A program made the translations under genes and the position numbers. Positions 13,497 through 45,544 of a stretch of 45,642 bases of DNA are shown here, piece after piece (the first letter of the stretch is position 1; each line of letters opens with the position of its first letter). Source of the DNA: an uncultured Gammaproteobacteria bacterium (GTDB taxonomy: Bacteria > Patescibacteriota > Microgenomatia > UBA12405); contig CAZIZX010000001.1 of assembly GCA_964544275.1 (NCBI GenBank), positions 1 to 45,642 of the forward strand, in the 5' to 3' direction. The notes below the pieces were generated by a model that worked only from the letters and a program-made list of their open reading frames with translations, ran no database searches and was not told the DNA's origin.

Positions 13497-13841
13497 ATGA
13501 ACAATAGGGGAGTATTTGATTTAATCAGAAATATCGTCCGCCAAATCCCACCAGGAAAGGTGTCTACGTATGGCAATGTCGCTCAGGCAGCCGGAATTGG
13601 AAATGCCCAGGTTGTTGGCTGGGCCCTGCGAGGCAACCAGAATAAAGACATCCCTTGTCACCGGGTTATTCAAAAAGGCGGCACCCTATCTTCCGGCTTT
13701 TCACTTAATGGTCCCAAGGAACAAAAAAAGCGTTTACTTAATGATGGCGTACCGTTTTTAGACGAGACCAGAGTTGACATGGATCAGGCTTTTTTCGACT
13801 TAGCCACTTTGCCCCAATTTTCTCCTGGCTCTGTTAATTAA
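13497..13841 (+). CDS. O6-methylguanine-DNA methyltransferase family protein (single domain, PCHRV)
   Basis: IPPGKVSTYGNVA, AQVVGWAL, IPCHRVI. Confidence 0.92.
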   Translation: MNNRGVFDLIRNIVRQIPPGKVSTYGNVAQAAGIGNAQVVGWALRGNQNKDIPCHRVIQKGGTLSSGFSLNGPKEQKKRLLNDGVPFLDETRVDMDQAFFDLATLPQFSPGSVN

Positions 13842-19510: not shown

Positions 19511-20725
19511 ATGTTTACACTCAAAAACCTTTTTTTCCTCCCCGCCATAATTTTTCTATCCTCTTTTCTTCTATCAGCTCACCCGCAGGCTCAATCAGGT
19601 AATTCCGGTCAATGTCAAAATGGGGAAGTCAAAAAAATTGAAAACCCTCCCTTTAACGCTCACACCTCCTGCCTTATTACCAGACTTGGAATAAAAGCCG
19701 GAAGTCAGGCTAGTGGTCATGGTTGTACTTACTATTCGTCAAATACTAATGACGGCTGTTACAAAGTTGAAGGTATCGGCACCAATCAGGCCTCCGCCAG
19801 TCGTGTTGGACACGGTAAATTTTGCCCAGAAATTTCTCATATTAAAGTTTATTGTGACCCGATCAACACTCCCACCCCAACCGTCACCCCAACACCCACC
19901 ACTAAACCTGCCAAACCTCCCACCCCCACTAAAAAACCTCATCCAACTAAAATTCCCAAACCCACTCACACCCCTAAACCCACCAAACCCCCCTGCGCCA
20001 CACCAACTCAGATCTCCACTCCAACCAGTACTCCCACTTCGGTTCCGACTCCCACCTCCACTCAGATACCAACAGTAACCCCCACCCCAACCAATCCACC
20101 AGCTCCTACTTCTACCCCCACCCCCCAGCCTCACTCTGATCCCACCGCCACTCCTACACCTCTACCCACATCTAGCCCCGCACCGGTTGGTGGCTACAAC
20201 CCCACCGTTGTTCAAGTTTTGGGTTCTACCGACAACTACAATCCTTTAATCGACGCCATCAAGAAATCACTTATTGGCCAGGTTTTAGGTGAAAATAATT
20301 TAGCTGGCACCAGTGATCCAAAAGCTTCAAACGAAAAATTACCTTCTTCCAATCTTCTGACCCCAAAAACGATAACAATTCCTCAGATTAATTTTTCTCA
20401 ACCCATATATCAATCAGATCGAATTGGCGACGAATTACTCGTTGGCCACAATGAAGTTTTAGAAGCGGATTTAAATGGACTAAAACTTATTTATGGTCAC
20501 AATAGCCCTCAAGTTTTTGCCAACCTCTATCAGCTAAATTTAGGCCAAAGTATAACCATAGATACAGGAGATCTGACCAGCGAATACCAGATTGTCTCCA
20601 AACACTTTGTTCATGAGTCCAAAAGTAACTTTTTCGAATCTGTTAGTTCCGACAATATCGTTTTGATGACCTGTTCTTATACTCAACCTGATTACCGACA
20701 CATAATAATTGCCAGCAAAATCTAA
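19511..20725 (+). CDS. sortase-domain protein with signal peptide, Cys-rich N-domain and Pro/Thr stalk
   Basis: C-terminal IYGHN..VFANLYQLNLGQSI...YQIV...IVLMTC....YRHII: His/Cys/Arg sortase triad in canonical order. Confidence 0.8.
   Translation: MFTLKNLFFLPAIIFLSSFLLSAHPQAQSGNSGQCQNGEVKKIENPPFNAHTSCLITRLGIKAGSQASGHGCTYYSSNTNDGCYKVEGIGTNQASASRVGHGKFCPEISHIKVYCDPINTPTPTVTPTPTTKPAKPPTPTKKPHPTKIPKPTHTPKPTKPPCATPTQISTPTSTPTSVPTPTSTQIPTVTPTPTNPPAPTSTPTPQPHSDPTATPTPLPTSSPAPVGGYNPTVVQVLGSTDNYNPLIDAIKKSLIGQVLGENNLAGTSDPKASNEKLPSSNLLTPKTITIPQINFSQPIYQSDRIGDELLVGHNEVLEADLNGLKLIYGHNSPQVFANLYQLNLGQSITIDTGDLTSEYQIVSKHFVHESKSNFFESVSSDNIVLMTCSYTQPDYRHIIIASKI
19860..20200 (+). repeat. Pro/Thr-rich low-complexity linker (TPTPT-type repeats)
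   Basis: Translated PINTPTPTVTPTPTTKPAKPPTPTKKP...TPTPLPTSSP; boundaries approximate. Confidence 0.85.
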
Positions 20726-21262
20726 ATGACCAACAAATTTAAAATCATAATTACTATCATTCTGCTAATCTTGGTGGCTTTTTCCATTAGAAATATTATT
20801 TCCGATAATAGCACTGCTCCGGTGATTGAAACTGAAATCGAAGAATCAGGTCTTCCCAATGGTTGGTCTTACTCTTCAGATACTGATGGGGTCGAAATCA
20901 AACTGGAGAAACAATCCGACCAGACAGTTAAACCGGGAATTGTTTTAATCAAGTCTGATTTACCCCAAAATATCACCCCAAAAAATTATGTCGATAAACT
21001 AATTAACGGTGCCAAAGCCACCCTAACCAGTTTTCGGGTTGCTCAAAATATTGAAACGGACGGTTTTGGTTATTATCTCCGTTCTCTCCAGGGAAACTAT
21101 TTGATCAGCCAGCAACAAATCAATCTTTTACAAAGAATTTATGTTATTGACGGCCAGGTGTTCACCCTCAATGCTTCTTATTTGCCTTCGGAAACCAACA
21201 TTGAGACCGAAATTGAACAAATATTTGATTCATTAATTGAACCGGAAATTAGTTCCAGTTAA
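20726..21262 (+). CDS. membrane-anchored PsbP/DcrB-like extracellular protein
   Basis: N-terminal TM; LPNGWS...; QRIYVIDGQVFTLNAS...EIEQIFDSL. Confidence 0.55.
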   Translation: MTNKFKIIITIILLILVAFSIRNIISDNSTAPVIETEIEESGLPNGWSYSSDTDGVEIKLEKQSDQTVKPGIVLIKSDLPQNITPKNYVDKLINGAKATLTSFRVAQNIETDGFGYYLRSLQGNYLISQQQINLLQRIYVIDGQVFTLNASYLPSETNIETEIEQIFDSLIEPEISSS

Positions 21263-27406: not shown

Positions 27407-27476
27407 GGCTCCTATTCTATCTCAACCTTTGGCTATTTACAAGAATTTATATAATAGAGCATAATTCACTTAACTC

Positions 27477-29090
27477 ATGAATATTAAAAATCTCCTCGCC
27501 TTCTACACCACCCGTCGCCAAAATAGTATTCTTTCCGCCTCCATTGTTCTGGGTATTGCCTTTGGTCTTTCTGCTATCTTGGGCTACCTTCGCACCCGGT
27601 TTCTTTACGCCCAGTTTTTTAGTTGCTGCACTTCTGACTTGGATGCTTACAATGCCGCCTTCCGCCTTCCGGACCTAATCTTTAAATTATTGGTCACCGG
27701 AGCTCTTTCTGCCTCATTTATCCCCGTGTTTTCCGACTATCTACATAAAGATCCAAAACAGGCCAACAAAATCGCCTCAACCGTCATTAATCTGCTTTTT
27801 TTGGTTTTTATTGTTGCTGCTGTAATGTTGCTAATTTTCACCCGGCCCTTGTCTGAGCTTATTGCTACCGGTTTTACCCCGCAGCAGTTCGATTTGATGG
27901 TTAATCTAACCAGGATCCTCCTAATCGCCCAGATATTCTTTCTTATCAGTAACTTTATCACTGCTGTTTTACAGGTCAATCAAATCTTCCTCATACCTGC
28001 TATGGCCCCCATCGTCTATAACCTTTTTATAATTTTAAGTATTTTCACCCTGGCCCCACAATTCGGACTTTATGGTGTTGCTTACGGAGCGGTGGTCGGT
28101 GCCTTTTTTCACCTTAGCATTCAGTTACCCATTACTCGAAAAGTAGGTTTTAATTATTCATTTATTGCCGATATTAAGCTCAAAGGTGTTAGAGAGGTAA
28201 TTAGGCTGATGATCCCCAGAAGTTTATCTCTCGGTTTAGGTGAGATCGAGAACACTGTTACTCTCTTCTTTTCCAGCACCCTGCCGGTTGGGTCTTTTTC
28301 TCTGCTTAATTTAGCTCTTCAACTCATTTATCTTCCGTCCAGAATATTCGGCACCACCGTCGGACAGGCTTCCCTGCCCATATTATCCAAAAACATCGCC
28401 CGAAACGAACTGGACATTTTCCGTCAGACCGTCAACAAAACACTTCTCCAAAGCTTATTTATCTCCTTGCCCATCGCCACCTTGATTTTGGTATTACGCC
28501 TCCCTATTGTTCGCATTGCCTATGGTTCCAGACAGTTTCCCTGGGAAGCTACCGTCTTAACTGCTCAAACACTTGCTTTTCTCACCCCGGTAATTGTTAG
28601 TCAGTCTGTTATTCAAATTCTTATCCGCTCCTTTTATGCCCTCCACAACACCAAAACCCCCCTTTATATTTCTTCTGTTGCTTTGGTTTTTAATTTTGTG
28701 CTTAATTATTCTTTTATCAAATTTACCAACCTTGGCATTTTGGGACTGGCCATCAGTTCATCGGTTAGCAATTTGATTCAGGTTACCGGATTAATGTTAT
28801 TGTTCATCAAAAAAGTCGACGGTTTCAATTGGGTATTAACTTTGAAATCAGCTATTCGTATTCTAATCACATCCATATTTATGGGGGTCATCACCTGGAT
28901 CTCCTTCAAAGGATTAGATCTTTTTCTTCTTAATACCAGCCGGACCCTAAACGTCCTTCTTCTTCTTGGTGTGTCTGTTCTCGTTGGTGGCGCTACCTAT
29001 CTGATATTAGCCCAAATACTAAACATCGAAGAATTCTCAGAATACAAAAAATATTTAACCAAAACCAAGCGTTTTATTTCCGTCAAATAG
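27477..29090 (+). CDS. murJ: lipid II flippase MurJ/MviN
   Basis: LGYLRTR, DAYNAAFRLPD, GALSASFIPVF, LLPILSK-like region, RSFYALHNTKTP. Confidence 0.93.
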   Translation: MNIKNLLAFYTTRRQNSILSASIVLGIAFGLSAILGYLRTRFLYAQFFSCCTSDLDAYNAAFRLPDLIFKLLVTGALSASFIPVFSDYLHKDPKQANKIASTVINLLFLVFIVAAVMLLIFTRPLSELIATGFTPQQFDLMVNLTRILLIAQIFFLISNFITAVLQVNQIFLIPAMAPIVYNLFIILSIFTLAPQFGLYGVAYGAVVGAFFHLSIQLPITRKVGFNYSFIADIKLKGVREVIRLMIPRSLSLGLGEIENTVTLFFSSTLPVGSFSLLNLALQLIYLPSRIFGTTVGQASLPILSKNIARNELDIFRQTVNKTLLQSLFISLPIATLILVLRLPIVRIAYGSRQFPWEATVLTAQTLAFLTPVIVSQSVIQILIRSFYALHNTKTPLYISSVALVFNFVLNYSFIKFTNLGILGLAISSSVSNLIQVTGLMLLFIKKVDGFNWVLTLKSAIRILITSIFMGVITWISFKGLDLFLLNTSRTLNVLLLLGVSVLVGGATYLILAQILNIEEFSEYKKYLTKTKRFISVK

Positions 29091-29107
29091 TTGTATATAC
29101 TGTTAGT

Positions 29108-29674
29108 ATGAAACCCAAAAAAGAGATCTCTCTTTTGCCGGAAGATGTCGATCTCAATTCGCCTTCTGCTCGAATTTTACGTTGGATTACTACTGTCGGT
29201 CGGGTTGTCATCATCGTTACCGAGTTAATAGTCATTGGCGCCTTTCTTTCCCGCTTTTATCTTGATCGCAAAAATGCCGACCTGTCAGAAATTATCCGCC
29301 AACAAAAAGCTATTCTCGACAGTACCAAAAGTTTCGAGTCTGAGTTTGTTGACCTCCAGACCAAACTTAGTACCATCAAAAAAGTTTATTCTGCCTCTCC
29401 CGATTATGAAGGAAAAATAAAAAATTTAGTCAGTAGTACCCCTCTGGACATTAGATATGAGCGTCTAAGTGTCAAAAAAGAAGACAACAATCTAATTCTG
29501 GCCGACATTAGCTTAATGGCCTATCAGGAGGAATCAATTGTAAATTTCATCACTAATCTAATTTTGAACCCGGAAATAGACTCGGTCAACGTTACTTCAA
29601 TCCAAAAGAACTCCAAAGAAAACTTCTATCGGGTCAGGATTTCACTGGTTTTCAAAAAGGACACTCAAAGATGA
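29108..29674 (+). CDS. PilN-like type IV pilus alignment protein
   Basis: EISLLP N-terminus, single TM, coiled coil, ferredoxin-like C-domain pattern. Confidence 0.6.
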   Translation: MKPKKEISLLPEDVDLNSPSARILRWITTVGRVVIIVTELIVIGAFLSRFYLDRKNADLSEIIRQQKAILDSTKSFESEFVDLQTKLSTIKKVYSASPDYEGKIKNLVSSTPLDIRYERLSVKKEDNNLILADISLMAYQEESIVNFITNLILNPEIDSVNVTSIQKNSKENFYRVRISLVFKKDTQR

Positions 29675-30321
29675 ACCTACCCAATAACTATAACCTCAAA
29701 ACACAAGAGCTGACGAAGTTTGTCAAGAAACAAAGTGAAAATCAACGTTTCATGAAAACGCTTGAGACCAGTGCTACCTTCTTTTTGATCACAATTTTTG
29801 GCTTATTCGCCATTCGCCCTACTTTTGTTACCATATCAGCCCTTATTGGCGAGATAAAGGCCAAAGAAATATTAGCCAGTCAAATGCGGGACAGGATAAA
29901 AAGTGTCGTCAAGGCCCAGGAAAACTACGCTTTAGTTCAGGAAAAATATTCCATTATTGAATCAAGCCTCCCCGATGGCTATAGATTTTATAACTCATCC
30001 AGTCAGTTTCAAGCTGCTTTCCAGAACAACCAGATGAAACCCAAGCAGATATCCTACGGTTTCCAGTCGGTTGCTAATAAGCAACCGAACACCAACCTTG
30101 ACAATTACACCCTTCGAACGGGTACCAGTTCTGATTTTTCACAGATACTTAATTTCATTGGCAAAATTCTTAATATTAAGCGGCTCATTGATATTAACCA
30201 AATATCCTTCAGTCTTGATAATAGTAGTGGTTCCGAGAACCCGGGCGGGGAAGTACCTTCGGGTGAAGTAAATTTTGACCTAAATGCCGATGTTTATTAT
30301 TGGAATACCGGAAATGAATAA
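29671..30321 (+). CDS. PilO-like type IV pilus alignment protein
   Basis: TM FAIRPT, coiled coil, SSDFSQILNFIGKILNIKRLIDINQISF (G.Y..I..F...IE...RL..I..I.F pattern). Confidence 0.65.
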   Translation: MNLPNNYNLKTQELTKFVKKQSENQRFMKTLETSATFFLITIFGLFAIRPTFVTISALIGEIKAKEILASQMRDRIKSVVKAQENYALVQEKYSIIESSLPDGYRFYNSSSQFQAAFQNNQMKPKQISYGFQSVANKQPNTNLDNYTLRTGTSSDFSQILNFIGKILNIKRLIDINQISFSLDNSSGSENPGGEVPSGEVNFDLNADVYYWNTGNE

Positions 30322-30601
30322 CAAAAAAACTCCTTCTTATCTCATATTTATTTCCATATTTACCTTAGTTACCGTGCTTATCATGATTGCTCACAAAAGT
30401 TACGACAACCTTGTCCGGCCTACAGAGGTAGTTATGACGTCGGAGAATGTTAAGCCACTCAATACTACCATTGATCTTAGCGTTCTTGAAGAAATCGAAA
30501 AAAGAGAAGAACTTGTCGTACAAGATTTGAATGTTGGACTACCGGTAACTCCGGATTATTTTGAAGACGCCACCGGTACCCCATCAGCTGAGCCTCAATA
30601 A
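30314..30601 (+). CDS. small bitopic membrane protein in PilP position
   Basis: ATG 30314 coupled to the pilO-like stop; N-terminal TM; LNTTIDLSVLEEIEKR. Confidence 0.55.
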   Translation: MNNKKTPSYLIFISIFTLVTVLIMIAHKSYDNLVRPTEVVMTSENVKPLNTTIDLSVLEEIEKREELVVQDLNVGLPVTPDYFEDATGTPSAEPQ

Positions 30602-30602
30602 A

Positions 30603-31919
30603 ATGCGACAAGAAAAAAGGATACCGACACTTTTGGGCTTGTTTTTTTTAACTTTTGTGATTTTTGCCGGCGTAGTTTTGACCCAGCAGAACATTGGACT
30701 GAATATAAAAGCCAGCCCCACCTGTCAGCCCGTCAACCCTCAAGTCTCCAACATCACCCACACCTCAGCCGATGTTTCTTTCCTCACCGAATCGGTATGC
30801 TCTATCGCTTTAAAAATCGACAACCGCACCATCACTAATTTCAAGGAGAACTCAAAAGTCCACTATTTTCAGGTAAATAATCTAAAAGAATCCACTCAGT
30901 ATACTTACAGTTTTGTCATAAACGCCAAAGAAATTCAAAATGACAATTATCGATTTAAAACAGCTAATCGACCGTCAGGTAAAATGCCCACTTCAAATTT
31001 AGCCTGGGGGAAGGTTTATACTGCCGGATACAATCCTGCCGCCGATGCTGTTGTCTATTTAAACATTCCTGGCGCATCCCCACTTTCTTCCCTGGTAACC
31101 TCAAATGGTTATTGGAATATCTCGCTTGCTACCAGTTTCAACATGGACAAAAATTCCTGGTTCACCCCCCCCGACAATGTCGAAGAAGAAATCATAGTTT
31201 TATTTCCCGGTTTCTCACCCACTCAAATCACCAGCAACACCTCAAAAAACAACCCGGTCCCCGATATAATTATTGGCCAAAATTCCTTCTCCAAAATCCA
31301 AATCGATGAATTGGCTTCGGGCATTCTGCTGCCGGAAAGTGGTGGAATACCAAGCATACAACTCGATGTTCTCAATCCTAAGGATAATGAATCAATCAAT
31401 ACCCAAAAACCCGATATTTTTGGTAGCGCCCCCCCCGGCTCTGAGTTGGATATCTTAATTGAGTCACCCCAAAGCTACAACGGCAAAACAACCGCTTCTA
31501 CCAACGGCTCTTGGAACTGGTCTCCACCGGCAAATCTGGAACCGGGAGAACACACCATTACGGTCACCGCTACCGATCCCAAAACGGGCGCCATTCAAAC
31601 TATAAAAAGAAAATTTATTGTCATGGCTGCCGAAGACAACACCCTTGCCTTTACTGCTTCTGGTTCTGCCGTACAACCCAGTCCGACCCCGACGCTTAAA
31701 CCCAGCCCAACCACAGCGGTAGCTACTCCCATCCCCACTTCCGTTCCGACGACCAAGATCAACACTCCCACTTCAATCCCGGTAACCAAAACGGAAAGCC
31801 CAAGTACGGATTCAGGTATACCAGTTGCTGGTACCACCCTTCCCACACTGGCTTTAATTTTATTTGCTTCTTGCCTTCTAGGACTAGCTCATACCATATC
31901 AAAAAAATCAGGTATTTAA
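30603..31919 (+). CDS. surface protein: N-terminal TM, FN3-like, Ig-like (Big) domains, Pro/Thr stalk, IPVAG + TM C-terminus
   Basis: PQVSNITHTSADVSF...VHYFQVNNLKESTQYTY (FN3); SNGSWNWSPPANLEPGEHTITVTATD (Big-like); GIPVAGTT-hydrophobic-KK. Confidence 0.8.
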   Translation: MRQEKRIPTLLGLFFLTFVIFAGVVLTQQNIGLNIKASPTCQPVNPQVSNITHTSADVSFLTESVCSIALKIDNRTITNFKENSKVHYFQVNNLKESTQYTYSFVINAKEIQNDNYRFKTANRPSGKMPTSNLAWGKVYTAGYNPAADAVVYLNIPGASPLSSLVTSNGYWNISLATSFNMDKNSWFTPPDNVEEEIIVLFPGFSPTQITSNTSKNNPVPDIIIGQNSFSKIQIDELASGILLPESGGIPSIQLDVLNPKDNESINTQKPDIFGSAPPGSELDILIESPQSYNGKTTASTNGSWNWSPPANLEPGEHTITVTATDPKTGAIQTIKRKFIVMAAEDNTLAFTASGSAVQPSPTPTLKPSPTTAVATPIPTSVPTTKINTPTSIPVTKTESPSTDSGIPVAGTTLPTLALILFASCLLGLAHTISKKSGI

Positions 31920-31952
31920 TTCCTCCACATTTTCCTCTAAACTAACAATAGA

Positions 31953-33233
31953 ATGTTTGTTAAGAAATATCTTTACGCCTTTTTAACCATTGTTTTTATT
32001 TCACTATCTCTAGTTGGAACCCTATATCTAGTCCAAAGAAATCAGGACATTCGCGATCATGCTGCCGGGGAAAACCAGTTGGTTTGCATGCCAATTGATG
32101 ATAGCGGCAACATAACTGCTGAAAAGTATCGATATAATCGAATAAAAGTTACCAACAACACCGGTGGTAATGTAATTATCTGGATCCAGGAAAACCTATG
32201 TGATTACAAAGGGACCATGCCTTCCGCCGGATATCGTTGCGATAATTACCACCGTCGTTACAACGATACTGTCGGCCCCGGTCAATCAAAAATTTACTCT
32301 ATGGATGTTCCTTGCGGGAAAATTGGTCAACTTGATATTGCCCAGGACGATGCCCAAATGGGCACTTATGTTCCGGATTGTTACAACACCACCGATCAAC
32401 AAATTTGGAGCGGAGGCATATCTTTCACCATCAAAGCCGATACCCGCACCAACTGTTGCCCTCAGGTAAACTTAAGTGTCCTCCCCTCTCAAGTGTCACC
32501 CGGAGGCAAAGTGACTTTTGATGCCTCCAGTTCACAACCCCTTGTTTGTGTCGAAATGCAATCAGTAAACGGAACCACCGGCAGTCTCTCTCCGACTAGG
32601 ATAGAAGGAGGTCATTGGAAATGGGACGCCACCGCCATATCTACTCCCGGGAAATATACGGTCACCTTTAGAGGCAACACAAAAGACAGTGGAGTTGGCG
32701 ACTGCCCCAGTCGGGCCATCGGCGATTGGTGCCCCGCCCAGGCGACTTTTGACATTCAACCTGCCACTACCAACACCCCCACCCCTACCGCCACCAAAAC
32801 TCCAACTCCGACAGCCACTAAAACTCCGACTCCCACTGCTACCAAGACACCGACCCCAACTGCCACTCGGGTTCCCACCAACACCCCCAGTCCCACCGCC
32901 ACCAACACTCCACCCCCCGGAGCTACTCTCACATCCACCCCCATCGCCACCAACACCCTCACCCCTACCGCTACTAACACTCCAGCCCCTACTAATACTC
33001 CACCTCCCGGAGCCACCTTAACTCCCACTCCTCTGGCTACCAATACTCCAGTACCCACTCCTGTCATCGCCGAAAGCACGCCCGTTCCTCCTACAGGTAC
33101 TCCAGTTTACGTTGCCCAAGTGCCAAGCCCGACCACGGTTATTTTGCCCCAAGCCGGAGTTAATTTCCCTCTTCAGTTATTAGCTGTTGTTGGTACAATT
33201 ATCACCCTTTTTGGGTTTTTGATATTATTGTAA
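31953..33233 (+). CDS. surface protein: N-terminal TM, Cys-rich domain, Pro/Thr stalk, LPQAG + TM C-terminus
   Basis: VQRNQDIRDHAAG after TM; many Cys; tandem TPTPTATK; ILPQAGVNFPLQLLAVVGTIITLFGFLILL. Confidence 0.8.
   Translation: MFVKKYLYAFLTIVFISLSLVGTLYLVQRNQDIRDHAAGENQLVCMPIDDSGNITAEKYRYNRIKVTNNTGGNVIIWIQENLCDYKGTMPSAGYRCDNYHRRYNDTVGPGQSKIYSMDVPCGKIGQLDIAQDDAQMGTYVPDCYNTTDQQIWSGGISFTIKADTRTNCCPQVNLSVLPSQVSPGGKVTFDASSSQPLVCVEMQSVNGTTGSLSPTRIEGGHWKWDATAISTPGKYTVTFRGNTKDSGVGDCPSRAIGDWCPAQATFDIQPATTNTPTPTATKTPTPTATKTPTPTATKTPTPTATRVPTNTPSPTATNTPPPGATLTSTPIATNTLTPTATNTPAPTNTPPPGATLTPTPLATNTPVPTPVIAESTPVPPTGTPVYVAQVPSPTTVILPQAGVNFPLQLLAVVGTIITLFGFLILL
32770..33060 (+). repeat. tandem Pro/Thr repeats (TPTPTATK-type x3-4; TNTPPPGATLT(S/P)TP(I/L)ATNT x2)
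   Basis: Seen directly in the translation; the DNA is synonymously diverged; boundaries approximate. Confidence 0.85.
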
Positions 33234-33237
33234 CCGG

Positions 33238-34167
33238 ATGACCACGATTATTGGTGTCAATATTTATTCACTTTTTGAAGCTCTCCGCCCGGCCCAATGG
33301 ATAAAAAACCTAAATCTATTTGCCGCCGCGATTTTAAACGGTCAGCTGACTAACTCCGAAGTATTTCTAAAAAGCACTGGTGCCTTCGTCGTATTTTGTT
33401 TACTATCTTCATCCTCCTATTTAATAAACGATCTTGTTGACATAAAAAGCGACCGGCTTCATCCCACCAAAAAAAACCGACCCCTTGCTCGTGGCGACGT
33501 GCCTGAATCTTTGGCTGTAGTCGCAGCTTTTATTTTATTAATACTTGGCTTATTCTTGGCCCTTTTTATTAATCCAGGGTTTTTGTTGATATCTCTTCTA
33601 TTTATAATTTTGCAGTACTCCTACTCACTGGTACTAAAAAAGAAAGCCATACTGGATATTATTGGTATCGCTTTTTTCTTTATATTAAGGGCCTTTGCTG
33701 GCGAAATTGCTACCGGGTATCACTTACCAGTTTGGATTATGCTCACGGTAATTTTCCTCTCTCTATTTATTGCCAGCGGCAAAAGACGCAGCGAACTAAC
33801 TAACGTTGGTACCAAGTCCAGGTCCGCCCTCAAAGGATACAAAACGTCCTTGCTCAATTTTTACACCACCATGTTTGCGGTCTGCACTCTCATTGCATAT
33901 GCTATGTTCACTTTTCTTGAAGAATCCGTCAATTTCCAGGGTATAATTCACAACTTTCTTCTGGAAAATTTTCCAGCAGCTTTAGGCAGAAAATGGTATA
34001 TGGCCACTTTATTGCCGGTAATTTTTGGGATCATGCGTTATGGTCAGATAATCTTTGAAATGCAGGAAGGCGAGCGACCGGAAAAAGTTATCGCCACTGA
34101 CATACCTTTAATCCTTTCGGTTCTCGCCTGGGGCTTGATGCTAATTACAATTATCTATGTTCTTTAA
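33238..34167 (+). CDS. UbiA-family prenyltransferase, decaprenyl-phosphate phosphoribosyltransferase (DPPR synthase)-like
   Basis: LRPAQWIKN, SSYLINDLVDIKSDRLHPTKKNRPLARG, ASGKRRSEL. Confidence 0.85.
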   Translation: MTTIIGVNIYSLFEALRPAQWIKNLNLFAAAILNGQLTNSEVFLKSTGAFVVFCLLSSSSYLINDLVDIKSDRLHPTKKNRPLARGDVPESLAVVAAFILLILGLFLALFINPGFLLISLLFIILQYSYSLVLKKKAILDIIGIAFFFILRAFAGEIATGYHLPVWIMLTVIFLSLFIASGKRRSELTNVGTKSRSALKGYKTSLLNFYTTMFAVCTLIAYAMFTFLEESVNFQGIIHNFLLENFPAALGRKWYMATLLPVIFGIMRYGQIIFEMQEGERPEKVIATDIPLILSVLAWGLMLITIIYVL

Positions 34168-35749
34168 GCGGCGCAGTGTTTCCAGACTTATTTTAGCCAT
34201 TCTTGCCTTACTTGCTTTTATAACCCGATTTTACAAACTTGATTGGGGAGAAGGTTTCTTCTTTCACCCGGACGAACTTAATATGGCTGTTGCCGTTACC
34301 AGAATGTCACCACTCGATTTCGATCCCCGCTTTTATGCTTATGGCCAATTTCCCCTGTTTCTGACTTATTTTTCCGTCCAAATCTCTAAATTTTTCAGCC
34401 ATGAACCCATTTCTTTATCCCAAGCTGTTATTGGCCTCAGATTTTGGTCGGCCATATTTTCCCTCATTTCTGTCTATATATTTTTTCACATTGGCAAAAA
34501 TCTGTTCAAAAAATCTGTTTACCCGCTTATATTCACCTTTTTAATAATATTCACCCCAGGACTGATACAATTATCCCACTTTGGTACAACCGAGTCGTTA
34601 CTGATCCTTATCTTTGCTGCCAATATCCTGATTTCTCTCAAACTCATCAACAAAAATAAATTAAATTATAAATTGATTTTTGTAGCTTCAGCCCTCAGTG
34701 GTGTCGCCATCAGTACCAAAATCAGTTCACTTATCTTAACCGGACCGATTTTTTTATCATTTTTATTAATTTTCCTGAAAAAAAAGAAATTGGCAGCATT
34801 TTTTAAACCTTTTCTAATTTTTACCACCTTAAGTTTATTATTCTCCATCCTCTCTTCCCCTTACAATTTAAAAAATATAAACGATTATCGTTCAACTCTA
34901 AGTTACGAAACAGCAGTTGCTCTGGGTAGCACTCAAGTCTTTTATACCAATCAATTTAGAAACACCACTCCTTATTTATTCCAGCTTATTCGGATATTTC
35001 CTTACACTCAAGGTTTATTGATATTGCCGTTGTCAGCCCTGGGATTATTTTTCTTATTCAAAAAAATCGACCCAAAATGGTCACTTGTATTGATACCCAG
35101 CCTGGTCTACTTTCTGTATTTTGGTCAAATTTATGTCAAATGGACCCGCTTTATGTCGCCTGTCTTTTTTATTTTTCCTCTGTTGGCTACTTACTTTTTT
35201 AGTGTTCAAAAAAATTACAAACTGACATCATTTCTTATTATGGTTTCAGCTGTTCCCGGTCTTTATTTCTTTAAATCTTATTTTCAACCGGACACCCGTT
35301 TGCAGGCAAACAATTGGCTAATTCAAAATATTCCACCTGAAGTCAACATTTTGTCAGAGTCAGGCAATATCGTCAACTTACCTCACTCAGATCACCGGTA
35401 TCATGTCAATAATTTTGACTTTTACACACTTGAAGACAACCCGCTTCAGTTAGACACCTTGGCCAGAGAAATTCGCCTGTCTGACTATATCATTGTCCCC
35501 TCCAGACGTGTCTTCAAAAACCAGACAGGAACTGATTTTCCGATCAGTCACCGTTACTATTCTCACCTGTTTTCCGGCGGTTTGGGATTTTCCAAAATAA
35601 AACAGTTTGAACACGACAATTCTTTCCTCCTCGATCCCGAAAAAGCCGAAGAAACCTGGTCGGTTTTTGACAATCCGACTGTTCGGATCTTCAAAAAAAC
35701 CAATTCCCTGCCGTTGGAACAATATCAACAAACTCTTGGAGGTTTATGA
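34157..35749 (+). CDS. GT-C fold glycosyltransferase
   Basis: LDWGEGFFFHPDE after TM1, FYAYGQFP, HFGTTE, KWTRFMSP. Confidence 0.8.
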   Translation: MFFKRRSVSRLILAILALLAFITRFYKLDWGEGFFFHPDELNMAVAVTRMSPLDFDPRFYAYGQFPLFLTYFSVQISKFFSHEPISLSQAVIGLRFWSAIFSLISVYIFFHIGKNLFKKSVYPLIFTFLIIFTPGLIQLSHFGTTESLLILIFAANILISLKLINKNKLNYKLIFVASALSGVAISTKISSLILTGPIFLSFLLIFLKKKKLAAFFKPFLIFTTLSLLFSILSSPYNLKNINDYRSTLSYETAVALGSTQVFYTNQFRNTTPYLFQLIRIFPYTQGLLILPLSALGLFFLFKKIDPKWSLVLIPSLVYFLYFGQIYVKWTRFMSPVFFIFPLLATYFFSVQKNYKLTSFLIMVSAVPGLYFFKSYFQPDTRLQANNWLIQNIPPEVNILSESGNIVNLPHSDHRYHVNNFDFYTLEDNPLQLDTLAREIRLSDYIIVPSRRVFKNQTGTDFPISHRYYSHLFSGGLGFSKIKQFEHDNSFLLDPEKAEETWSVFDNPTVRIFKKTNSLPLEQYQQTLGGL

Positions 35750-37449
35750 AAACCAAAAACAGGATAATACTCGCCTTTGTCTTGGCACTGGCCACCATCC
35801 TCAGGTTTACTGGTTTTAACTGGGACCAAAACCACCACCTCCATCCCGACGAAAGATTTTTGACCATGGTAACTACCTCTATCGAAATTCCTCAATCGTT
35901 GACGCATTACTTTGATCCCAACATTTCCACCATGAATCCCTACAATGTTGGCTACGATTTTTATATCTACGGCACAGTTCCTCTTTACTTAACCAAAATA
36001 ATCGGTAATCTGGTCAACCAAAAAGACTATTCCACCATTCATCTGGTCGGTAGAGCCTTATCGGCCCTATTTGACTTAAGTGTTGTTCTTATTCTTTTCA
36101 AATTAGTCCACCAGTTTTTTAACTTCAAAACTGCCATTTTATCTGCTTTTCTATATGCCCTCATGGTACTCCCCATCCAGCAATCACATTTTTTCACTGT
36201 CGATTCCTTCCTCAACTTCTTTCTTTTTTTAAGCTTTAGCCTACTTGTCTATTTCCTCAAATACCCCAGGCGCTGGCTATATTTAATTGGTTCTGCCTTT
36301 ATTTTTGGTCTTAGCTCAGCCACCAAAATATCATCTCTTTATTTTGCTCCCATTCTCGGACTGATAATTTTATTTAAATATTTATCTTCAAAAGATCAAA
36401 ACCGCCTTAAAATATTTCTGGTAACTGGCCTGATATTTATTATCGTCAGTCTCTTCACACTTCGTTTAACCCAACCTTCGTTTTTCGCCAACGCCAGTTA
36501 TTTGAACTGGCAGATTAACCCCAAGTTCTTGGCCAATATAAAACAACTCGAATCCTTTAATCGACCCCAATCCTGGTTTCCGCCAGCCCTCCAGTGGCAA
36601 GGTACGCTACCGGTAGTGTTTCCGCTCCAAAACATTGTACTTTGGGGCTTGGGTTTACCGTTGGGAATAATATTCTTGGTATCAATTCCAAATTCATTAA
36701 GCTTCATAAAAAAATCGTCACCAAAAGCTCAGGTAATTCCTCGGATTATCACTTTCTTATCAATAGTTTGGATTTTTTTCCTCCTGATTTATCAGGGCAG
36801 CCAATTTTGCAAAACCATGCGCTATTTTTTGCCCCTCTACCCGTTCATTGCCATCATCAGCTCACTCTATCTAAGTCGTTTGCTGCCAAAACACAAAAAC
36901 TTTCTGGTTTTATTATTACTGGTAACTGCAATTTATCCGCTTTCATTTATCTCCATTTATACCCAGCCCACCACTCGGATTACAGCTTCACGTTGGATTT
37001 ATGACCATATCCCCGCCGGCTCTGTTCTAGCCAATGAACATTGGGACGATCCTTTACCTCTTAATTTAAACCAACATTCTTCCTCAATCTATCCCGGAGA
37101 AATGCTATCTCTCTATGATCCTGATTCTGAAGATAAATGGCGAACAATAGCCAACCAATTGGGTCGCTCTGATTATATTATCTTGTCTTCCAACCGCCTC
37201 TATGCCCCGATTGGCCATAATCCCGACCAATATCCTATAGCAACAAAATATTACCAATCCCTTTTTGACGGTTCTCTTGGTTTTCAAAAAGTTGCCCAGT
37301 TTACCTCCTATCCTTGTTTTCCGCCCCTTAGCCGGTCACTCTTTTGTCTAAACGACGACAAATCAGAAGAAGCCTTTACCGTTTATGACCACCCCAAAGT
37401 GATGATTTTCCAAAAAACTAACTCTTTTTCGCCAGAAGTATTATATTAA
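35746..37449 (+). CDS. GT-C fold glycosyltransferase (paralogue of previous)
   Basis: FNWDQNHHLHPDERF, FYIYGTVP, QQSHFFTVD, KTMRYFLP, LANEHWDDPLP. Confidence 0.82.
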   Translation: MKTKNRIILAFVLALATILRFTGFNWDQNHHLHPDERFLTMVTTSIEIPQSLTHYFDPNISTMNPYNVGYDFYIYGTVPLYLTKIIGNLVNQKDYSTIHLVGRALSALFDLSVVLILFKLVHQFFNFKTAILSAFLYALMVLPIQQSHFFTVDSFLNFFLFLSFSLLVYFLKYPRRWLYLIGSAFIFGLSSATKISSLYFAPILGLIILFKYLSSKDQNRLKIFLVTGLIFIIVSLFTLRLTQPSFFANASYLNWQINPKFLANIKQLESFNRPQSWFPPALQWQGTLPVVFPLQNIVLWGLGLPLGIIFLVSIPNSLSFIKKSSPKAQVIPRIITFLSIVWIFFLLIYQGSQFCKTMRYFLPLYPFIAIISSLYLSRLLPKHKNFLVLLLLVTAIYPLSFISIYTQPTTRITASRWIYDHIPAGSVLANEHWDDPLPLNLNQHSSSIYPGEMLSLYDPDSEDKWRTIANQLGRSDYIILSSNRLYAPIGHNPDQYPIATKYYQSLFDGSLGFQKVAQFTSYPCFPPLSRSLFCLNDDKSEEAFTVYDHPKVMIFQKTNSFSPEVLY

Positions 37450-39880: not shown

Positions 39881-40468
39881 ATGCACCCTGTTGCTTTTAA
39901 GTTAAAACAATATTTATTTTGGCAACCACCGCTCGATTTATTATCGATCTTATTGACAGCAAAAAGTGGCCGTTTTTTATTTATTATCTTAAATTACTTT
40001 ATTTGGCCCTTTCTCGCTTACCTTTCATTTATCTTAGTAGCTACCAACCCCAATATTTTTTGGCAAATACTATCCGCCTTGGTTTTAAGTGTTTTGATTG
40101 AATATTCCCTCAAATCATTTCTACCCTGGAAAAGACCAATTTCCCAAACCAAAAACGTCTTACCTTTTAAGCTGGAACAGCGATGGGCGCTTCGTGGCAG
40201 TTTCCCATCAGGTCACACCGCCAAAACTTTAATCTATTTTTTGTTTATCATCCAATACCATGTTTTTTCTCCTATAACTTTTTTGCTTATAAACATACCC
40301 TTGATTGCCTCTCGAATTATACTTGGCCTTCATTACCCCATCGATATTCTTGGAGGATTATTAACCGGATGGACAGTTTGGTTAGTTATTCGTTACATTA
40401 CTTTCCCCCCAATCCTAACCAACCTCGTTCGTGATATATTAAACCTAATTTTTAATTATGTTTTCTGA
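39881..40468 (+). CDS. PAP2-family membrane phosphatase
   Basis: K....KRP, SFPSGH, SRIILGLHYPIDILGG. Confidence 0.92.
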   Translation: MHPVAFKLKQYLFWQPPLDLLSILLTAKSGRFLFIILNYFIWPFLAYLSFILVATNPNIFWQILSALVLSVLIEYSLKSFLPWKRPISQTKNVLPFKLEQRWALRGSFPSGHTAKTLIYFLFIIQYHVFSPITFLLINIPLIASRIILGLHYPIDILGGLLTGWTVWLVIRYITFPPILTNLVRDILNLIFNYVF

Positions 40469-42545
40469 TTTAAAATTTATTATTTTCTGGTGGCTTACAA
40501 TATTTCTCGTTTCGGGATTTTCACTGCCTCTCGTATTTTCTATATTTCCTAAATTCTGGGATAAAGGCTATATCTTTGCCAAGATAACTTCTTTAATCAT
40601 CCTGACCTATTCTATTTTTGTTTTTGGTGTTCTAAAAATTCTTCCTTTCACCAATCTTTCAATTATTTTTCTGCTCTTCATTTTTGCTTCCTTAACCGGC
40701 CTATTATTATCACGCAAGAATAGATATAAATTACTTACCAACACTCTAAAATCAAACTGGAAAAAGTTTCTTTTTGAAGAAATATTATTCCTGTCTATTT
40801 TAATGTTCTGGTCATACATTAGAGGTTTCAGCCCCGACATTGAAGGTCTGGAAAAGTTTATGGATTGGGGATTCGTTAATTCTAGTCTCAGGTCTACTTT
40901 TATGCCGCCGACTGATATGTGGTTTTCCGGTCAACCCATAAATTATTATTATTTTGGCCATCTCGTTTTTGCCCTTTTGACCAAGTTGTCAAACATCGAT
41001 AGTGCCATTACTTACAATCTGTCAATTGCCAGTATAACCGCCCTCACCTTTGTTAGCACTTTTTCTATTGCTACTAATTTAATCACCAATTTCTTCAAAA
41101 AAATTTCTTCAAAAAAATTTTTAACCGTTGGATTAATTTCTGCTCTCCTCTTAACCTTTGGTGGCAACCTTCACGCTGTCTACAAAATTACCGCCATAAA
41201 CATAAAGACCAATGGCGATAAACTGGTACTGTCTTCCTCTGCCATCAAAGAAGCGGCCAATTCTTATTGGTATCCTGACGCCACTCGTTTTATTGGATTC
41301 GATCCGGAAACCGATGACAAAACAATCCACGAATTTCCCTCGTATAGCTTTGTTGTTTCCGACCTCCACGGCCACATGAACGGTATCCCAATAGTTCTTT
41401 TCTTTTTGGCCTTTTTATTTTCAATTTCTTTATCACCCCAATCATTCTCTTCCTGGAAATTAATAATCCCTTCGGGCTTTGTTCTTTCCATAGCCTACAT
41501 GACCAACGCTTGGGACATTGCCATCTATGGCTTATTTTTTGGACTTTTCCTCTTTCTGAATAAACTTAAGAAATATGATCTAAAAAATTCAATTACCAAA
41601 ACTTTTTTCAACGGGTTTTTGGTTATAGTTGTCTGGTATCTCTTCACCTTGCCTTTCTCTCTCAACTTTGTACCAATGATGGAAGGAGTTCGGCTGTCTG
41701 ATTCAAGAACTCCCTTTTTTCAGTTATTTATTCTTTACGGAGGTTTCTGGCTAATTTCTTTTCCATTTGTTTTAATTTTTGCCAAGAGTAAATTTAATCT
41801 TAAGAAAATTAATAACTCTGATCTTTTTGTTGCCTGTTTAATTTTTATTGCCACCATTCTAATTCTTATCCCGGAGATCGCTTACATCAAAGACATTTAT
41901 ATTTACGAACACCGCCGCGCCAACACCATGTTTAAGCTGACTTATCAAGCTTTTATCATGTACTCACTTGCCAGTGGCTATATTGTCATCCGTCTGCTAA
42001 ATATTCTAAAAAAAATTCCCAAGATAATTTACTGCTTGGTTTTTGCACTGGTCTTCTCTTGTCATATAATCTATCCTTACTTTGCCATAAATTCTTATTA
42101 CGGAGGCCTGAGGCAGTATAAAGGTTTATGGGGATTGAGTTTTTTAAATAATGTTTATCCGGACAATTACAACGCTATAAAATGGTTAAACGAAAACGTT
42201 GCGGGTCAACCACACATAGTGGAAGCTGTCGGTGACAGCTATACCACCTTCAACCAGGTGTCAATGGCCACAGGACTCCCGACAATCCAGGGCTGGCTTG
42301 TTCACGAATGGCTGTGGCGCGGTGGTTATGATCAACCTGGAGCTCGGGCCGAAGAAGTCAGAATAATTTATGAATCACCCCATGCCTCAGAAGTAAAACC
42401 CCTGCTCATGAAGTATTCCATAAAGTATCTCTTCCTCGGCGACAAAGAATACGAAAAATATCCTAAATTAGACGAAAAGAAATTCGAAGAAATTGGTGGC
42501 CGTATAGTCTTTCAGTCGGGTGATACCAAAATTTATGAATTTTAA
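40458..42545 (+). CDS. DUF2298 / YYY-type multi-pass membrane protein (predicted GT-C-like)
   Basis: EGLEKFMD, DMWFSGQPINYYYFGH, EFPSYSFVVSDLHGH, NAWD, NTMFK, EAVGDSY, TGLPTIQGW..HE..WR. Confidence 0.85.
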   Translation: MFSDLKFIIFWWLTIFLVSGFSLPLVFSIFPKFWDKGYIFAKITSLIILTYSIFVFGVLKILPFTNLSIIFLLFIFASLTGLLLSRKNRYKLLTNTLKSNWKKFLFEEILFLSILMFWSYIRGFSPDIEGLEKFMDWGFVNSSLRSTFMPPTDMWFSGQPINYYYFGHLVFALLTKLSNIDSAITYNLSIASITALTFVSTFSIATNLITNFFKKISSKKFLTVGLISALLLTFGGNLHAVYKITAINIKTNGDKLVLSSSAIKEAANSYWYPDATRFIGFDPETDDKTIHEFPSYSFVVSDLHGHMNGIPIVLFFLAFLFSISLSPQSFSSWKLIIPSGFVLSIAYMTNAWDIAIYGLFFGLFLFLNKLKKYDLKNSITKTFFNGFLVIVVWYLFTLPFSLNFVPMMEGVRLSDSRTPFFQLFILYGGFWLISFPFVLIFAKSKFNLKKINNSDLFVACLIFIATILILIPEIAYIKDIYIYEHRRANTMFKLTYQAFIMYSLASGYIVIRLLNILKKIPKIIYCLVFALVFSCHIIYPYFAINSYYGGLRQYKGLWGLSFLNNVYPDNYNAIKWLNENVAGQPHIVEAVGDSYTTFNQVSMATGLPTIQGWLVHEWLWRGGYDQPGARAEEVRIIYESPHASEVKPLLMKYSIKYLFLGDKEYEKYPKLDEKKFEEIGGRIVFQSGDTKIYEF

Positions 42546-44506: not shown

Positions 44507-45544
44507 ATGATTACCCGAATTCTTTACAACGAAGAAAAAGACCAATACAGCCAACTAGTCCATCACCCGGTCCAAACTTGGGAATGGGGCGACTTTCAAA
44601 CTTCACAAGGGCACCGTGTTTACCGATTAGGCGTATTTGACAAAGAAAAAATGATTTCTGCCTATTCAGTTAGTTTTCACTCCCTCCCCAAGACTAACTA
44701 TACTATCGGCACTTTACTCCGTGGCCCTTCAGTGACCAAGGATATGATTACTAATGTAGCCAAAATCGCTGGTGAAGAAAATGCCGTTTTTGTTAAATTT
44801 GAACCGGATGAGCTCGAGGCCATTTATAACAAATCTAATCAGCCCAAAAATTTTAATATAAGTTTAGATTTTCCTGGACTCACCTCTTCACCCAAGGTTG
44901 CCTTTTATCCCTATTCATACATCATCGACCTGAACAAATCCTCAGATCAACTTCTCAACGACATGCACCCAAAGACCCGGTACAATATCAAGGTTGCCAA
45001 CCGCTACGGAGTTGTTGTCGAAGAAAAAACTAATAACGGCGGCTTCGAAACCTACCTCAAGTTGCTTTTTGACACCACCAAACGTCAAGGTTTTTATCTT
45101 CACACCGAAAAATACCATCGGGACCTATGGCAGACGCTCAAGAACACCGGCATCCCCAAAATATTTTTGGCATCATACCAAGGCCAAACTCTAGCTGCTT
45201 TCATGCTTTTTATTCTAAAAGACAAACTATTTTATCCCTACGGTTCTTCCAGTGATCTCCATCGTCAAGTTATGGCCCCGACCCTCCTTATGTGGGAAGC
45301 CATTAAATACGGCCAGGAAAAAGGTTGTAAAACTTTTGATATGTGGGGCAGCCTCGGTCCTGAACCCAAACAGTCAGAACAAGGTTACGGCTTCCACCGT
45401 TTTAAGCAGGGTTTTGGTGGACAACTGGTCCGGTATGTTGGTACTTATGACCTGGTTATCAATCCCCAGGCCTACCGTTTATACAATTTAATCGACAAAT
45501 ATCGTTGGAAATATCTACGTCTTAAAGCAAAAATACTCAAGTAA
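44507..45544 (+). CDS. FemAB/FemX-family lipid II aminoacyl (peptidyl) transferase
   Basis: HPVQTWEWG, RGP, VKFEP, KTRYNIKVA, YPYGSSS, LLMWEAI, FDMWG, RFKQGFGG. Confidence 0.92.
   Translation: MITRILYNEEKDQYSQLVHHPVQTWEWGDFQTSQGHRVYRLGVFDKEKMISAYSVSFHSLPKTNYTIGTLLRGPSVTKDMITNVAKIAGEENAVFVKFEPDELEAIYNKSNQPKNFNISLDFPGLTSSPKVAFYPYSYIIDLNKSSDQLLNDMHPKTRYNIKVANRYGVVVEEKTNNGGFETYLKLLFDTTKRQGFYLHTEKYHRDLWQTLKNTGIPKIFLASYQGQTLAAFMLFILKDKLFYPYGSSSDLHRQVMAPTLLMWEAIKYGQEKGCKTFDMWGSLGPEPKQSEQGYGFHRFKQGFGGQLVRYVGTYDLVINPQAYRLYNLIDKYRWKYLRLKAKILK

Follow-up and report, generated by a model that had tools for sequence, protein, structure and literature searches.

Are the two genes that directly follow pilN- and pilO-like genes in a Microgenomates genome substrates of a sortase, and what connects them to the pilus-type genes beside them? 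The question is raised by a stretch of 45,642 nucleotides (nt) from contig CAZIZX010000001.1, referred to here in its entirety as the window, in which two consecutive genes at 30603-33233 on the + strand encode proteins that we call A and B. An original prediction, made from the letters of the window, regarded A and B as tandem sortase substrates of the LPxAG type and proposed that every component of a wall-anchoring pathway is encoded in the window, in coupling with type IV pilus (T4P) alignment genes. Our analysis favors, with rather more confidence than doubt, a conserved Microgenomates envelope module composed of pilN, pilO, a small gene, and A, with B as an accessory component and with sortase-type signals on A and B. 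Processing by a sortase appears quite likely for A and is marginally favored for B.

Both tails have the predicted form. The IPVAG of A is followed by a transmembrane (TM) helix and two lysines, and the LPQAG of B by a TM helix, with coordinates and motifs exactly as proposed (Table 1); sequence and structure models also confirm, in each protein, a Pro/Thr-rich (PT) stalk ahead of the motif and a hydrophobic segment at the N-terminus. Translation of A past IPVAG reads TTLPTLALILFASCLLGLAHTIS, then KKSGI and the stop codon. The candidate sortase-site stretches of the two tails are SGIPVAGTTLPT and VILPQAGVNFPL, and the corresponding peptides are STDSGIPVAGTTLPT and PTTVILPQAGVNFPLQ. Of the features that mark sortase substrates, A and B share an N-terminal Sec-type signal, a conserved variant pentapeptide, and a hydrophobic segment behind the motif, while a positively charged tail is present in A (KKSGI) and lacking in B. 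Among the open reading frames (ORFs) of the window with a hydrophobic C-terminus, only A and B carry such a pentapeptide. In 1117 ORFs of related loci, the pattern [LIVM]P.[TSA]G has a background frequency of 6.1e-5 per residue within the protein bodies, and 92 C-terminal occurrences were observed where about 1.4 were expected, all in the A and B families and related slot proteins; since the 1117 ORFs are homologous, this excess measures conservation and not independent events. For the signals of exosortases, archaeosortases, and rhombosortases, NCBIfam gave no match and A and B showed no PEP, PGF, or GG signature, and none of these three enzymes was found among the ORFs of the window.

At least 485 homologs of A, with lengths of approximately 430 amino acids (aa), were identified, and the named ones come from Shapirobacteria or Woesebacteria; the best 120 of them served as a database set for comparing tails. 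A species-level ortholog set was obtained by scanning species-representative genomes, which yielded 80 loci (numbered with the prefix L) with flanks of +-10 kb. Class-1 tails, those of the A type, were counted in the 80 A orthologs, including that of the window, after alignment on the motif, and class-2 tails in 37 B-type proteins. A tail was called basic when it had at least one K/R within its last eight residues. The record titles of L010, L016, L018, and many other loci read 'uncultured Gammaproteobacteria bacterium', and these loci are Shapirobacteria-like by synteny, with A proteins that are 45-65% identical; judged by sequence, the titles are placeholder or mislabeled taxonomy.

Conservation of the motif among orthologs had been named beforehand as a point on which the prediction could fail, and the motif proved to be retained in most of the 80 A orthologs and in 115 of the 120 best A homologs, where x-P-x-x-G stands approximately 26 residues before the C-terminus. 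In these homologs, position 1 is mostly I, V, or M (48, 45, and 18 proteins) and position 4 is T, S, or A (75, 23, and 12). The pair 'PT' follows at +4/+5 past the Gly in 105 of them, and a basic tail closes 99 of the 115 motif-bearing proteins. The ortholog set gives a similar picture, with Pro at position 2 in 64 of 80, T, S, or A at position 4 in 38, 28, and 8, Gly at position 5 in 72 (Ala in the other 8), Pro at +4 and Thr at +5 in 67 each, and a basic tail in 66. The class-1 consensus can be written as [V/I/L/M]-P-x-[T/S/A]-G-xxx-P-T, followed by a helix and usually a terminal K/R, and it is retained in A orthologs down to 30% overall identity. That this signal is conserved inside an otherwise unconserved stalk is the strongest argument for its being functional. 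The label 'LPxAG-type' given to both proteins has to be amended for A; by comparison with its orthologs, IPVAG is a minority form, with Ala at position 4 in 8/80, of a [V/I/M]Px[T/S]G signal.

The class-2 motif is retained as well, L-[P/L]-x-[A/S/T]-G being present in all 37 B-type tails. Leu at position 1 and Gly at position 5 are invariant (37/37 each), position 2 is Pro in 34 and Leu in 3, and position 4 is Ala in 26, Ser in 10, and Thr in 1. A Pro stands at +4 in 34/37, the tail extends exactly 24 residues past the Gly in 28/37, and no K/R is found within the last eight residues in 34/37, resulting in a consensus of L-P-x-[A/S]-G-xx[F/L]-P. Relatives of B share a C-terminal module of approximately 45 residues, GPSPTRI(I/V)LPx(A/S)G(V/I/F)(D/E)FPx(Q/K)xLxxxGxIx(T/S)LxG(F/L)LILL. 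The lack of a basic tail in B, which had been described as atypical, is thus real, but the tail counts indicate that it is a conserved, defining property of a distinct class and not a peculiarity of B.

In Firmicutes, LPx(A/S)G is an accepted minor signal of sortase A, both in staphylococci and in streptococci (PMC3436756, PMC2657157). The signals described here resemble the LPXTG and LPX(A/S)G signals of that phylum, such as those of the two LPxAG proteins of S. aureus and of SUB0207 and SUB0241 of S. uberis, in the Pro at position 2, the Gly at position 5, the helix, and, for class 1, the basic tail. They are also alike in the N-terminal Sec signal, a sortase gene in the genome, and Ala/Ser at position 4. 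However, class 1 has V/I/M at position 1 rather than L, both classes carry G-xxx-P(T), and class 2 combines the lack of a basic tail with a fixed length of 24 residues and a conserved helix. Moreover, A and B do not match the curated LPXTG-anchor model, and the sortase of the window is a stalked form that cannot be classified. From these comparisons we conclude that the two classes extend the LPXTG family by new variants. The Pro four residues past the Gly is common to both classes, which argues for one recognition system, and the class-2 tails of a deep clade (L076-L089) also have P-T at +4/+5.

The sortase matches the Pfam Sortase family (E=3.9e-12) and has its catalytic His in YGHN, Cys in LMTC, and Arg in DYRH. 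Its best solved relative is SrtC-3 of S. pneumoniae (2w1k, E=1.5e-05), and its matches to classes C and D are weak. In other genomes, IMPDH occupies its position. By gene order it is an accessory, non-syntenic gene, and it is a candidate for the processing enzyme. Since sortases are nearly ubiquitous in Microgenomates (Méheust et al.), one is expected in all of these genomes. We also observed that, wherever the stalked sortase was found, a DcrB-like bitopic protein follows it (19511-21262 in the window, L069:629-1560, and L011:39-739), and this pair is patchy among relatives.

Several points weigh against the module and its processing as we read them. The only sortase of the window has no membrane helix beside its catalytic domain, and L011 and L069 are the only other loci with this sortase at a distance of up to 10 kb from A, which is equally true of its DcrB-like partner. 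None of the NCBIfam sorting-signal models (LPXTG anchor, PEP-CTERM, and similar) matched A or B at E<=0.1. The class-1 motif is degenerate, with one subclade that has L-Y-E-S-G without the Pro and a few proteins with L-L-E-S-G or with Ala in place of the Gly, variants that make the class-1 code looser than LPXTG, and 14 of the 80 A ortholog tails contain no basic residues. Class 2 has no basic retention tail at all, and its membrane helix (G.I.TL.GFLILL) is unusually conserved, which is untypical for a segment that is merely discarded. With regard to the pilus, PilM, PilB, PilC, PilT, PilD, and a pilin are all missing from the window, and in two metatranscriptomes from the study that holds the DNA of the organism, which occurs in wastewater or bioreactors, nothing mapped to the locus. 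Finally, cleavage is something that we infer, as are wall attachment, the acting sortase, glycosylation, and a role in a pilus.

The missing charged tail of class 2, together with its highly conserved helix, leaves room for a permanent anchor or a dedicated enzyme in the case of B. If the tails were permanent and uncleaved, the PilN/PilO platform would include A and B as type I membrane proteins; the conserved [VIL]Px[TSA]GxxxP(T) stretch would then serve as a helix cap or as a hinge next to the membrane, and the class-2 helix would pack, for example, on the helices of PilN, PilO, and the small protein. The class-2 helix is indeed far more conserved than the ectodomain and shows a spacing of small residues (G..I.T...G) that is typical of helix packing. 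The missing basic tail of class 2, the missing match to any curated sorting-signal hidden Markov model, and the A orthologs without the motif Pro or Gly point in the same direction, and PT also opens the N-terminal helix of A (RIPTILGL), so that P-T may be a mere helix N-cap. However, the pentapeptide of A, its distance from the end, and the basic tail (66/80) fit a sortase signal point by point, position 5 is almost always Gly in either class, and sortases are present in the genome and in the lineage. Permanent anchoring of both proteins seems unlikely to us. The point-by-point match of the A tail and the presence of sortases make cleavage before the Gly and transfer to a peptidoglycan bridge the best reading.

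It is also conceivable, if rather doubtful, that class-2 tails are served by an enzyme of their own, either an A/S-specific sortase paralog or an unknown intramembrane enzyme, and that the housekeeping sortase handles class 1 alone. Two separable signal classes within one operon are in keeping with such a division; class 2 invariably has L at position 1 where class 1 mostly has V/I/M, position 4 is A/S in the former and mostly T/S in the latter, and class 2 has a tail fixed at 24 residues and devoid of the basic residues that class 1 usually has. The two loci in which the stalked sortase recurs, L011 and L069, both contain class-2 proteins. On the other hand, many genomes with class-2 proteins, among them L001, L008, and L009, have no stalked sortase within 10 kb, and the shared Pro at +4, with P-T at +4/+5 in the class 2 of the deep clade, ties the two classes together.

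Table 1. Positions of the features discussed, in window coordinates.
Feature	Position	Strand	Details
Stalked sortase	19511..20725	+	Signal peptide, Cys-rich domain, ~130 aa PT linker, catalytic domain aa 288-402
murJ, lipid II flippase	27477..29090	+	Pfam MurJ E=4.7e-74; possible first gene of transcription unit
Divergent PilN	29108..29674	+	188 aa, bitopic; N-terminus KKEISLLPED
Divergent PilO	29671..30321	+	216 aa; 4-nt overlap with pilN stop
Small bitopic protein	30314..30601	+	~95 aa, one TM; likely start MNNKK at 30314, 8-nt overlap with pilO
Protein A	30603..31919	+	438 aa; signal/anchor aa 1-37, three beta-sandwich domains, PT stalk, class-1 sorting signal
IPVAG pentapeptide of A	31818..31832	+	Codons ATA CCA GTT GCT GGT; class-1 motif
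C-terminal TM helix of A and KKSGI tail	31839..31919	+	Helix aa 413-434
Protein B	31953..33233	+	426 aa; signal/anchor with LVQRNQDIRDHA motif, two beta domains, PT-repeat stalk, class-2 tail
LPQAG pentapeptide of B	33144..33158	+	Codons TTG CCC CAA GCC GGA; class-2 motif
24-residue class-2 tail of B	33159..33233	+	VNFPLQLLAVVGTIITLFGFLILL, then stop; no K/R
UbiA/DPPR-synthase-like prenyltransferase and two GT-C (PMT-like) glycosyltransferases	33238..37449	+	Immediately downstream of B
FemAB-family transferase	44507..45544	+	Pfam FemAB E=1.5e-37

Protein A is taken to start at the ATG at 30603 and not at the TTG at 30561, because its orthologs start MKKEKRIPTILGL. A basic n-region and a hydrophobic segment, of which residues 9-26 are helical in the model, open the protein, and signal peptidase probably cleaves between IKA and S; this site and that of B are small-x-small sites judged by eye. 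The extreme N-terminus, M-K-K-E-K-R-I-P-T-I-L-G-L (30603-30650 in the window, and in orthologs), is conserved far above a generic signal peptide, and its helix opens with P-T, the same pair as at the start of the C-terminal helix. AlphaFold places beta-sandwich domains at aa 44-120, 133-211, and 255-340 (mean predicted local distance difference test score, pLDDT, of 78), the third of which is a Big_13 domain (Pfam E=6.4e-09), and the Pro/Thr-rich stalk at aa 346-409 is disordered in the model (pLDDT <50). A Foldseek search with this model returned just generic FN3/Ig, macroglobulin, and adhesin-like chains and no specific functional hint; the TM-scores were low because the domains are arranged as beads on a string.

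Two other types of surface structure were considered for A. The pneumococcal pilus proteins RrgB, RrgC, and RrgA carry the signals IPQTG, VPDTG, and YPRTG, and A is like such sortase-assembled Gram-positive pili in the Ile/Val at position 1 and the Ig-like domains, to which the weak class C match of the window's sortase (2w1k) may be added. However, there is no adjacent class C sortase here, A is a single-copy protein outside any pilin gene set, and its alignment contains no conserved lysine of a YPKN-type pilin motif, the NPxDNE stretch likewise being without a conserved Lys. We thus rejected A as a sortase-assembled pilin for want of the pilin-motif lysine and an adjacent sortase. The Pam pili of bacteria of the candidate phyla radiation (CPR; PMC13278184) are similar in that they are CPR-specific, Ig-like envelope structures with accessory proteins anchored C-terminally in the membrane. 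In contrast, the pam operon lies near the ATP synthase, a context different from the present one, A has just generic FN3/Ig matches, and no donor-strand pilin architecture was detected in it. A Pam pilus operon was accordingly rejected on gene context and missing motifs.

Protein B likewise opens with a basic n-region and a hydrophobic segment (residues 2-36 are helical in the model), and its signal peptide is probably cleaved after RDHA, that is, between DHA and A. A Cys-rich beta domain (~aa 40-165) and a second beta domain (~aa 173-268) precede a Pro/Thr-rich stalk (~residues 270-395), in which imperfect tandem repeats of 24/48/72/108 nt span 32769-33007; the structure prediction for B, made from just 8 sequences, is of low quality (mean pLDDT 55). 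Relatives of B share the N-terminal signal motif LV(K/Q)xNQD(I/L)R(D/N)(R/K)A. In its closest relatives, from loci with A proteins that are 62-65% identical, the signal, stalk, and tail correspond nearly letter for letter and the ectodomains are unrelated, and the first domain of B recurs in proteins with quite different ends (...GWR). A hydrophobic helix followed by (L/V)xxxxQ(D/E)(I/L)Rx(R/K)A was also observed in P0123, P0139, P0141, P0162, P0178, L076:12053, and L077:12180 in addition to B (31953-32070), and this export motif recurs in many unrelated secreted CPR proteins. By analogy, it may serve signal peptidase or targeting in a manner specific to this lineage, YSIRK-like in spirit.

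The slot behind A has a history of its own. Class-2 proteins always stand directly after A and, in the main clade, also ahead of a UbiA-like gene, and they fill this slot in about 40% of the species. On the tree of A orthologs, both branches of the deepest split include loci with class-2 neighbors, which argues that the slot protein is ancestral and has been repeatedly lost or exchanged; B as a recent, lineage-specific insertion was rejected on these grounds, and class-2 proteins look ancestral from their distribution. They are missing chiefly from one derived clade of approximately 40 species, in which A has [VI]PKTG and KK, the most canonical-looking form. A raw cross-table of position 4 of A against the class-2 neighbor gave 7 loci with and 28 without such a neighbor when position 4 is T, and 24 and 14 when it is not (Fisher p=3e-4). 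Covariation between the two was nevertheless rejected, as class-2 presence changes only ~5 times on the tree and the independent-pairs test is powerless; the table would mainly reflect the derived clade that lost class 2.

Other occupants of the slot were also noted. L051:11290-13591 and L088:11348-15571 hold tandem pairs, either two class-2 proteins or two secreted-plus-anchored pairs, whose tails are nearly identical and whose ectodomains differ, consistent with duplication and cassette exchange. In L055:11216-12100, L058:3733-5265, L089:11342-12829, P0122, and P0123, the protein after A has no C-terminal helix and ends in a conserved ...Y.VE..VY.P.LGWR (or ...C..WGQAQ). Within the deep clade, such helix-less proteins are paired with a short LPEAG-tailed protein, and the two may be a secreted and anchored pair.

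What, then, of the genes ahead of A? Their designation as pilN- and pilO-like is borne out at the family level, through the Pfam and profile matches of their relatives. PF05137 (PilN) is matched by 27/36 members of the PilN-like family (best E=4.4e-08) and PF04350 (PilO) by 32/52 PilO-like relatives (best E=1.1e-15), while the two proteins of the window itself have no Pfam match at E<=0.01. The profile of the PilO-like family matches PilO of Myxococcus (3jc8, E=4.7e-11) and of Pseudomonas (2rjz, E=0.0013); that of the PilN-like family found no PilN among solved structures, so its membership rests on the Pfam matches of relatives, and some sources name its homologs PilN. Residues K4, K5, E6, S8, L9, L10, and P11 are nearly invariant across the PilN-like family. 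The N-terminus of the window PilN, KKEISLLP, is one that we take to resemble the PilM-binding INLLP motif. As families, judged by these profiles, the genes ahead of A are true, if divergent, members of PilN and PilO. The small bitopic protein that follows has no Pfam or NCBIfam match, and it contains a conserved P(I/L)NPxLDxxxIxEIExR segment behind its TM helix.

The linkage of these genes is tight. BLAST placed the small protein between PilO and A in 67 loci, and the order PilN-PilO-small-A is kept in every locus with enough upstream flank, with stops and starts that usually overlap; the exception is L076, in which BLAST found no PilO. No description of this linkage was found in the searchable literature, nor of the class-1 and class-2 signals. 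The invariable coupling of A with PilN and PilO, which is a matter of gene linkage only, suggests that A is a structural partner of the platform and not an ordinary adhesin. The module can be compared with the alignment subcomplex PilM-PilN-PilO-PilP(-PilQ) of type IVa pili (Myxococcus 3jc8, Pseudomonas, Thermus), with which it shares a translationally coupled pilN-pilO pair encoding two bitopic proteins, an INLLP-like PilN N-terminus, and genes for envelope proteins next in line. In contrast to pilMNOPQ, the operon lacks both PilM and a secretin, the places of PilP and PilQ are taken by the orphan bitopic protein of ~95 aa and the Ig-like stalk protein with a sortase signal, and the module stands apart from pilus motor and pilin genes, beside murJ. 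By analogy, the operon resembles pilMNOPQ with P and Q replaced by an orphan bitopic protein and an Ig-like protein tagged for wall anchoring.

This separation from the pilus genes extends beyond the window, as no PilM, pilus motor, or pilin gene was found within +-10 kb in ~80 loci. One might therefore suppose an envelope complex with no relation to T4P, made up of the PilN/PilO-like pair, the small protein, and A, in which the likeness to pilus proteins is one of fold ancestry; such a complex could, as one option, link the export of lipid II by MurJ, or cell division, to wall-anchored proteins. An adjacency to murJ that survives inversion and the sub-threshold Pfam scores of the window's own PilN and PilO would suit this idea. 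Against it stand the nearly invariant ISLLP motif of the PilN N-terminus and the match of the PilO-like profile to a bona fide PilO of the type IVa machine, and we consider a complex unrelated to pili to be the less probable interpretation by some distance.

The genes at 27477-37449 of the window all point in one direction, and no gap between them exceeds 33 nt. The best promoter-like site of the region lies at 27436-27465, before murJ, and no convincing internal terminator was seen. A single transcription unit from murJ to 37449 is plausible on this layout. MurJ adjoins pilN in all loci with enough flank and is on the opposite strand in the deep clade, where rpsT is co-oriented with pilN in place of the inverted murJ. 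The FemAB gene is 11 kb from A and B in the window and ~10 kb downstream in several other loci. FemAB would imply a branched peptidoglycan bridge, and FemAB and MurJ together are compatible with a branched lipid II acceptor; the positions of the two genes are nonetheless, from the comparison of loci, a reflection of the strongly conserved gene order of small genomes and not of an operon with A and B. As such, the sortase, FemAB, and MurJ of the pathway that had been proposed are genuine, but its completeness and its coupling to the pilus genes had been overread from a conserved gene order; the sortase is near A in so few other loci, FemAB is distant, murJ can be inverted, and PilM, PilB, PilC, PilT, and PilD are absent. 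Elsewhere in the window, a DUF11 repeat protein of 835 aa, encoded at 13800-16307 on the - strand, ends in a C-terminal helix and RARRKLGQSG with no LPxTG-like pentapeptide before them (…GVLGDTSPAMNIRDRNYLYLLPGLL…), and thus carries a third kind of C-terminal anchor.

The block of UbiA-like and GT-C genes is found directly after A or the class-2 slot in most main-clade loci. GspA of Actinomyces oris is a glycosylated sortase substrate, and actinobacterial Pmt O-mannosylates Pro/Thr linkers. The present locus is similar in that Ser/Thr/Pro-rich, stalked proteins with sortase signals are encoded beside membrane glycosyltransferases (33238-37449), and it is possible that the UbiA-like enzyme and the two PMT-like GT-C enzymes glycosylate the PT stalks. 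It differs from GspA and Pmt in that glycosylation is suggested by adjacency and in that the donor looks like a polyprenyl-phospho-pentose (DPPR-synthase-like) and not mannose. A wider set of genes at 33238-37449 and 39881-42545, encoding the DPPR-synthase-like UbiA, two PMT-like GT-C enzymes, a PAP2 phosphatase, and a DUF2298 protein, follows A and B in most main-clade loci and may provide a lipid-linked route by which pentose is added to the Pro/Thr stalks.

Taken as a sequence of events, the module with sortase-type signals that we favor would function as follows. A and B would be exported via Sec by their N-terminal signal peptides, each with a long, probably glycosylated Pro/Thr stalk and a three-part sorting signal at its end, and both would be retained by their C-terminal helices. 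In the case of A, the precursor would be kept in the membrane by the helix together with the basic tail until the sortase Cys cuts between position 4 (Ala here) and Gly, and A would then be transferred to a free amine of lipid II or of a peptidoglycan cross-bridge. Its three Ig/FN3-like domains would thereby be fixed to the wall beside the PilN/PilO platform, and B would be a swappable surface or adhesin protein that is processed by the same or a second sortase. One may go further and picture Microgenomates, which have T4P and neither an outer membrane nor a secretin, as having equipped the PilN/PilO platform with a wall module of its own, in which the small protein and A replace PilP and PilQ and tie the platform covalently to peptidoglycan beside the lipid II flippase, and in which class-2 proteins are swappable cassettes loaded there through a lineage-specific [hydrophobic]Px[T/S/A]G-xxx-P code. 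We offer this extended picture as speculation that is more likely to be wrong than right by a wide margin.

The sortases of Microgenomates are known, but their substrates and recognition code have so far been undescribed, and this locus provides two defined and conserved signal classes. Pili play a central part in the episymbiotic lifestyle of these organisms, and the pilN-pilO-small-A linkage suggests a concrete way in which a platform for pilus alignment may be joined to the wall of a monoderm CPR cell. The class-2 cassettes, with constant export and anchor ends and an exchanged ectodomain, look like a hot spot of surface-protein diversification, and they may determine contact with a host or substrate.

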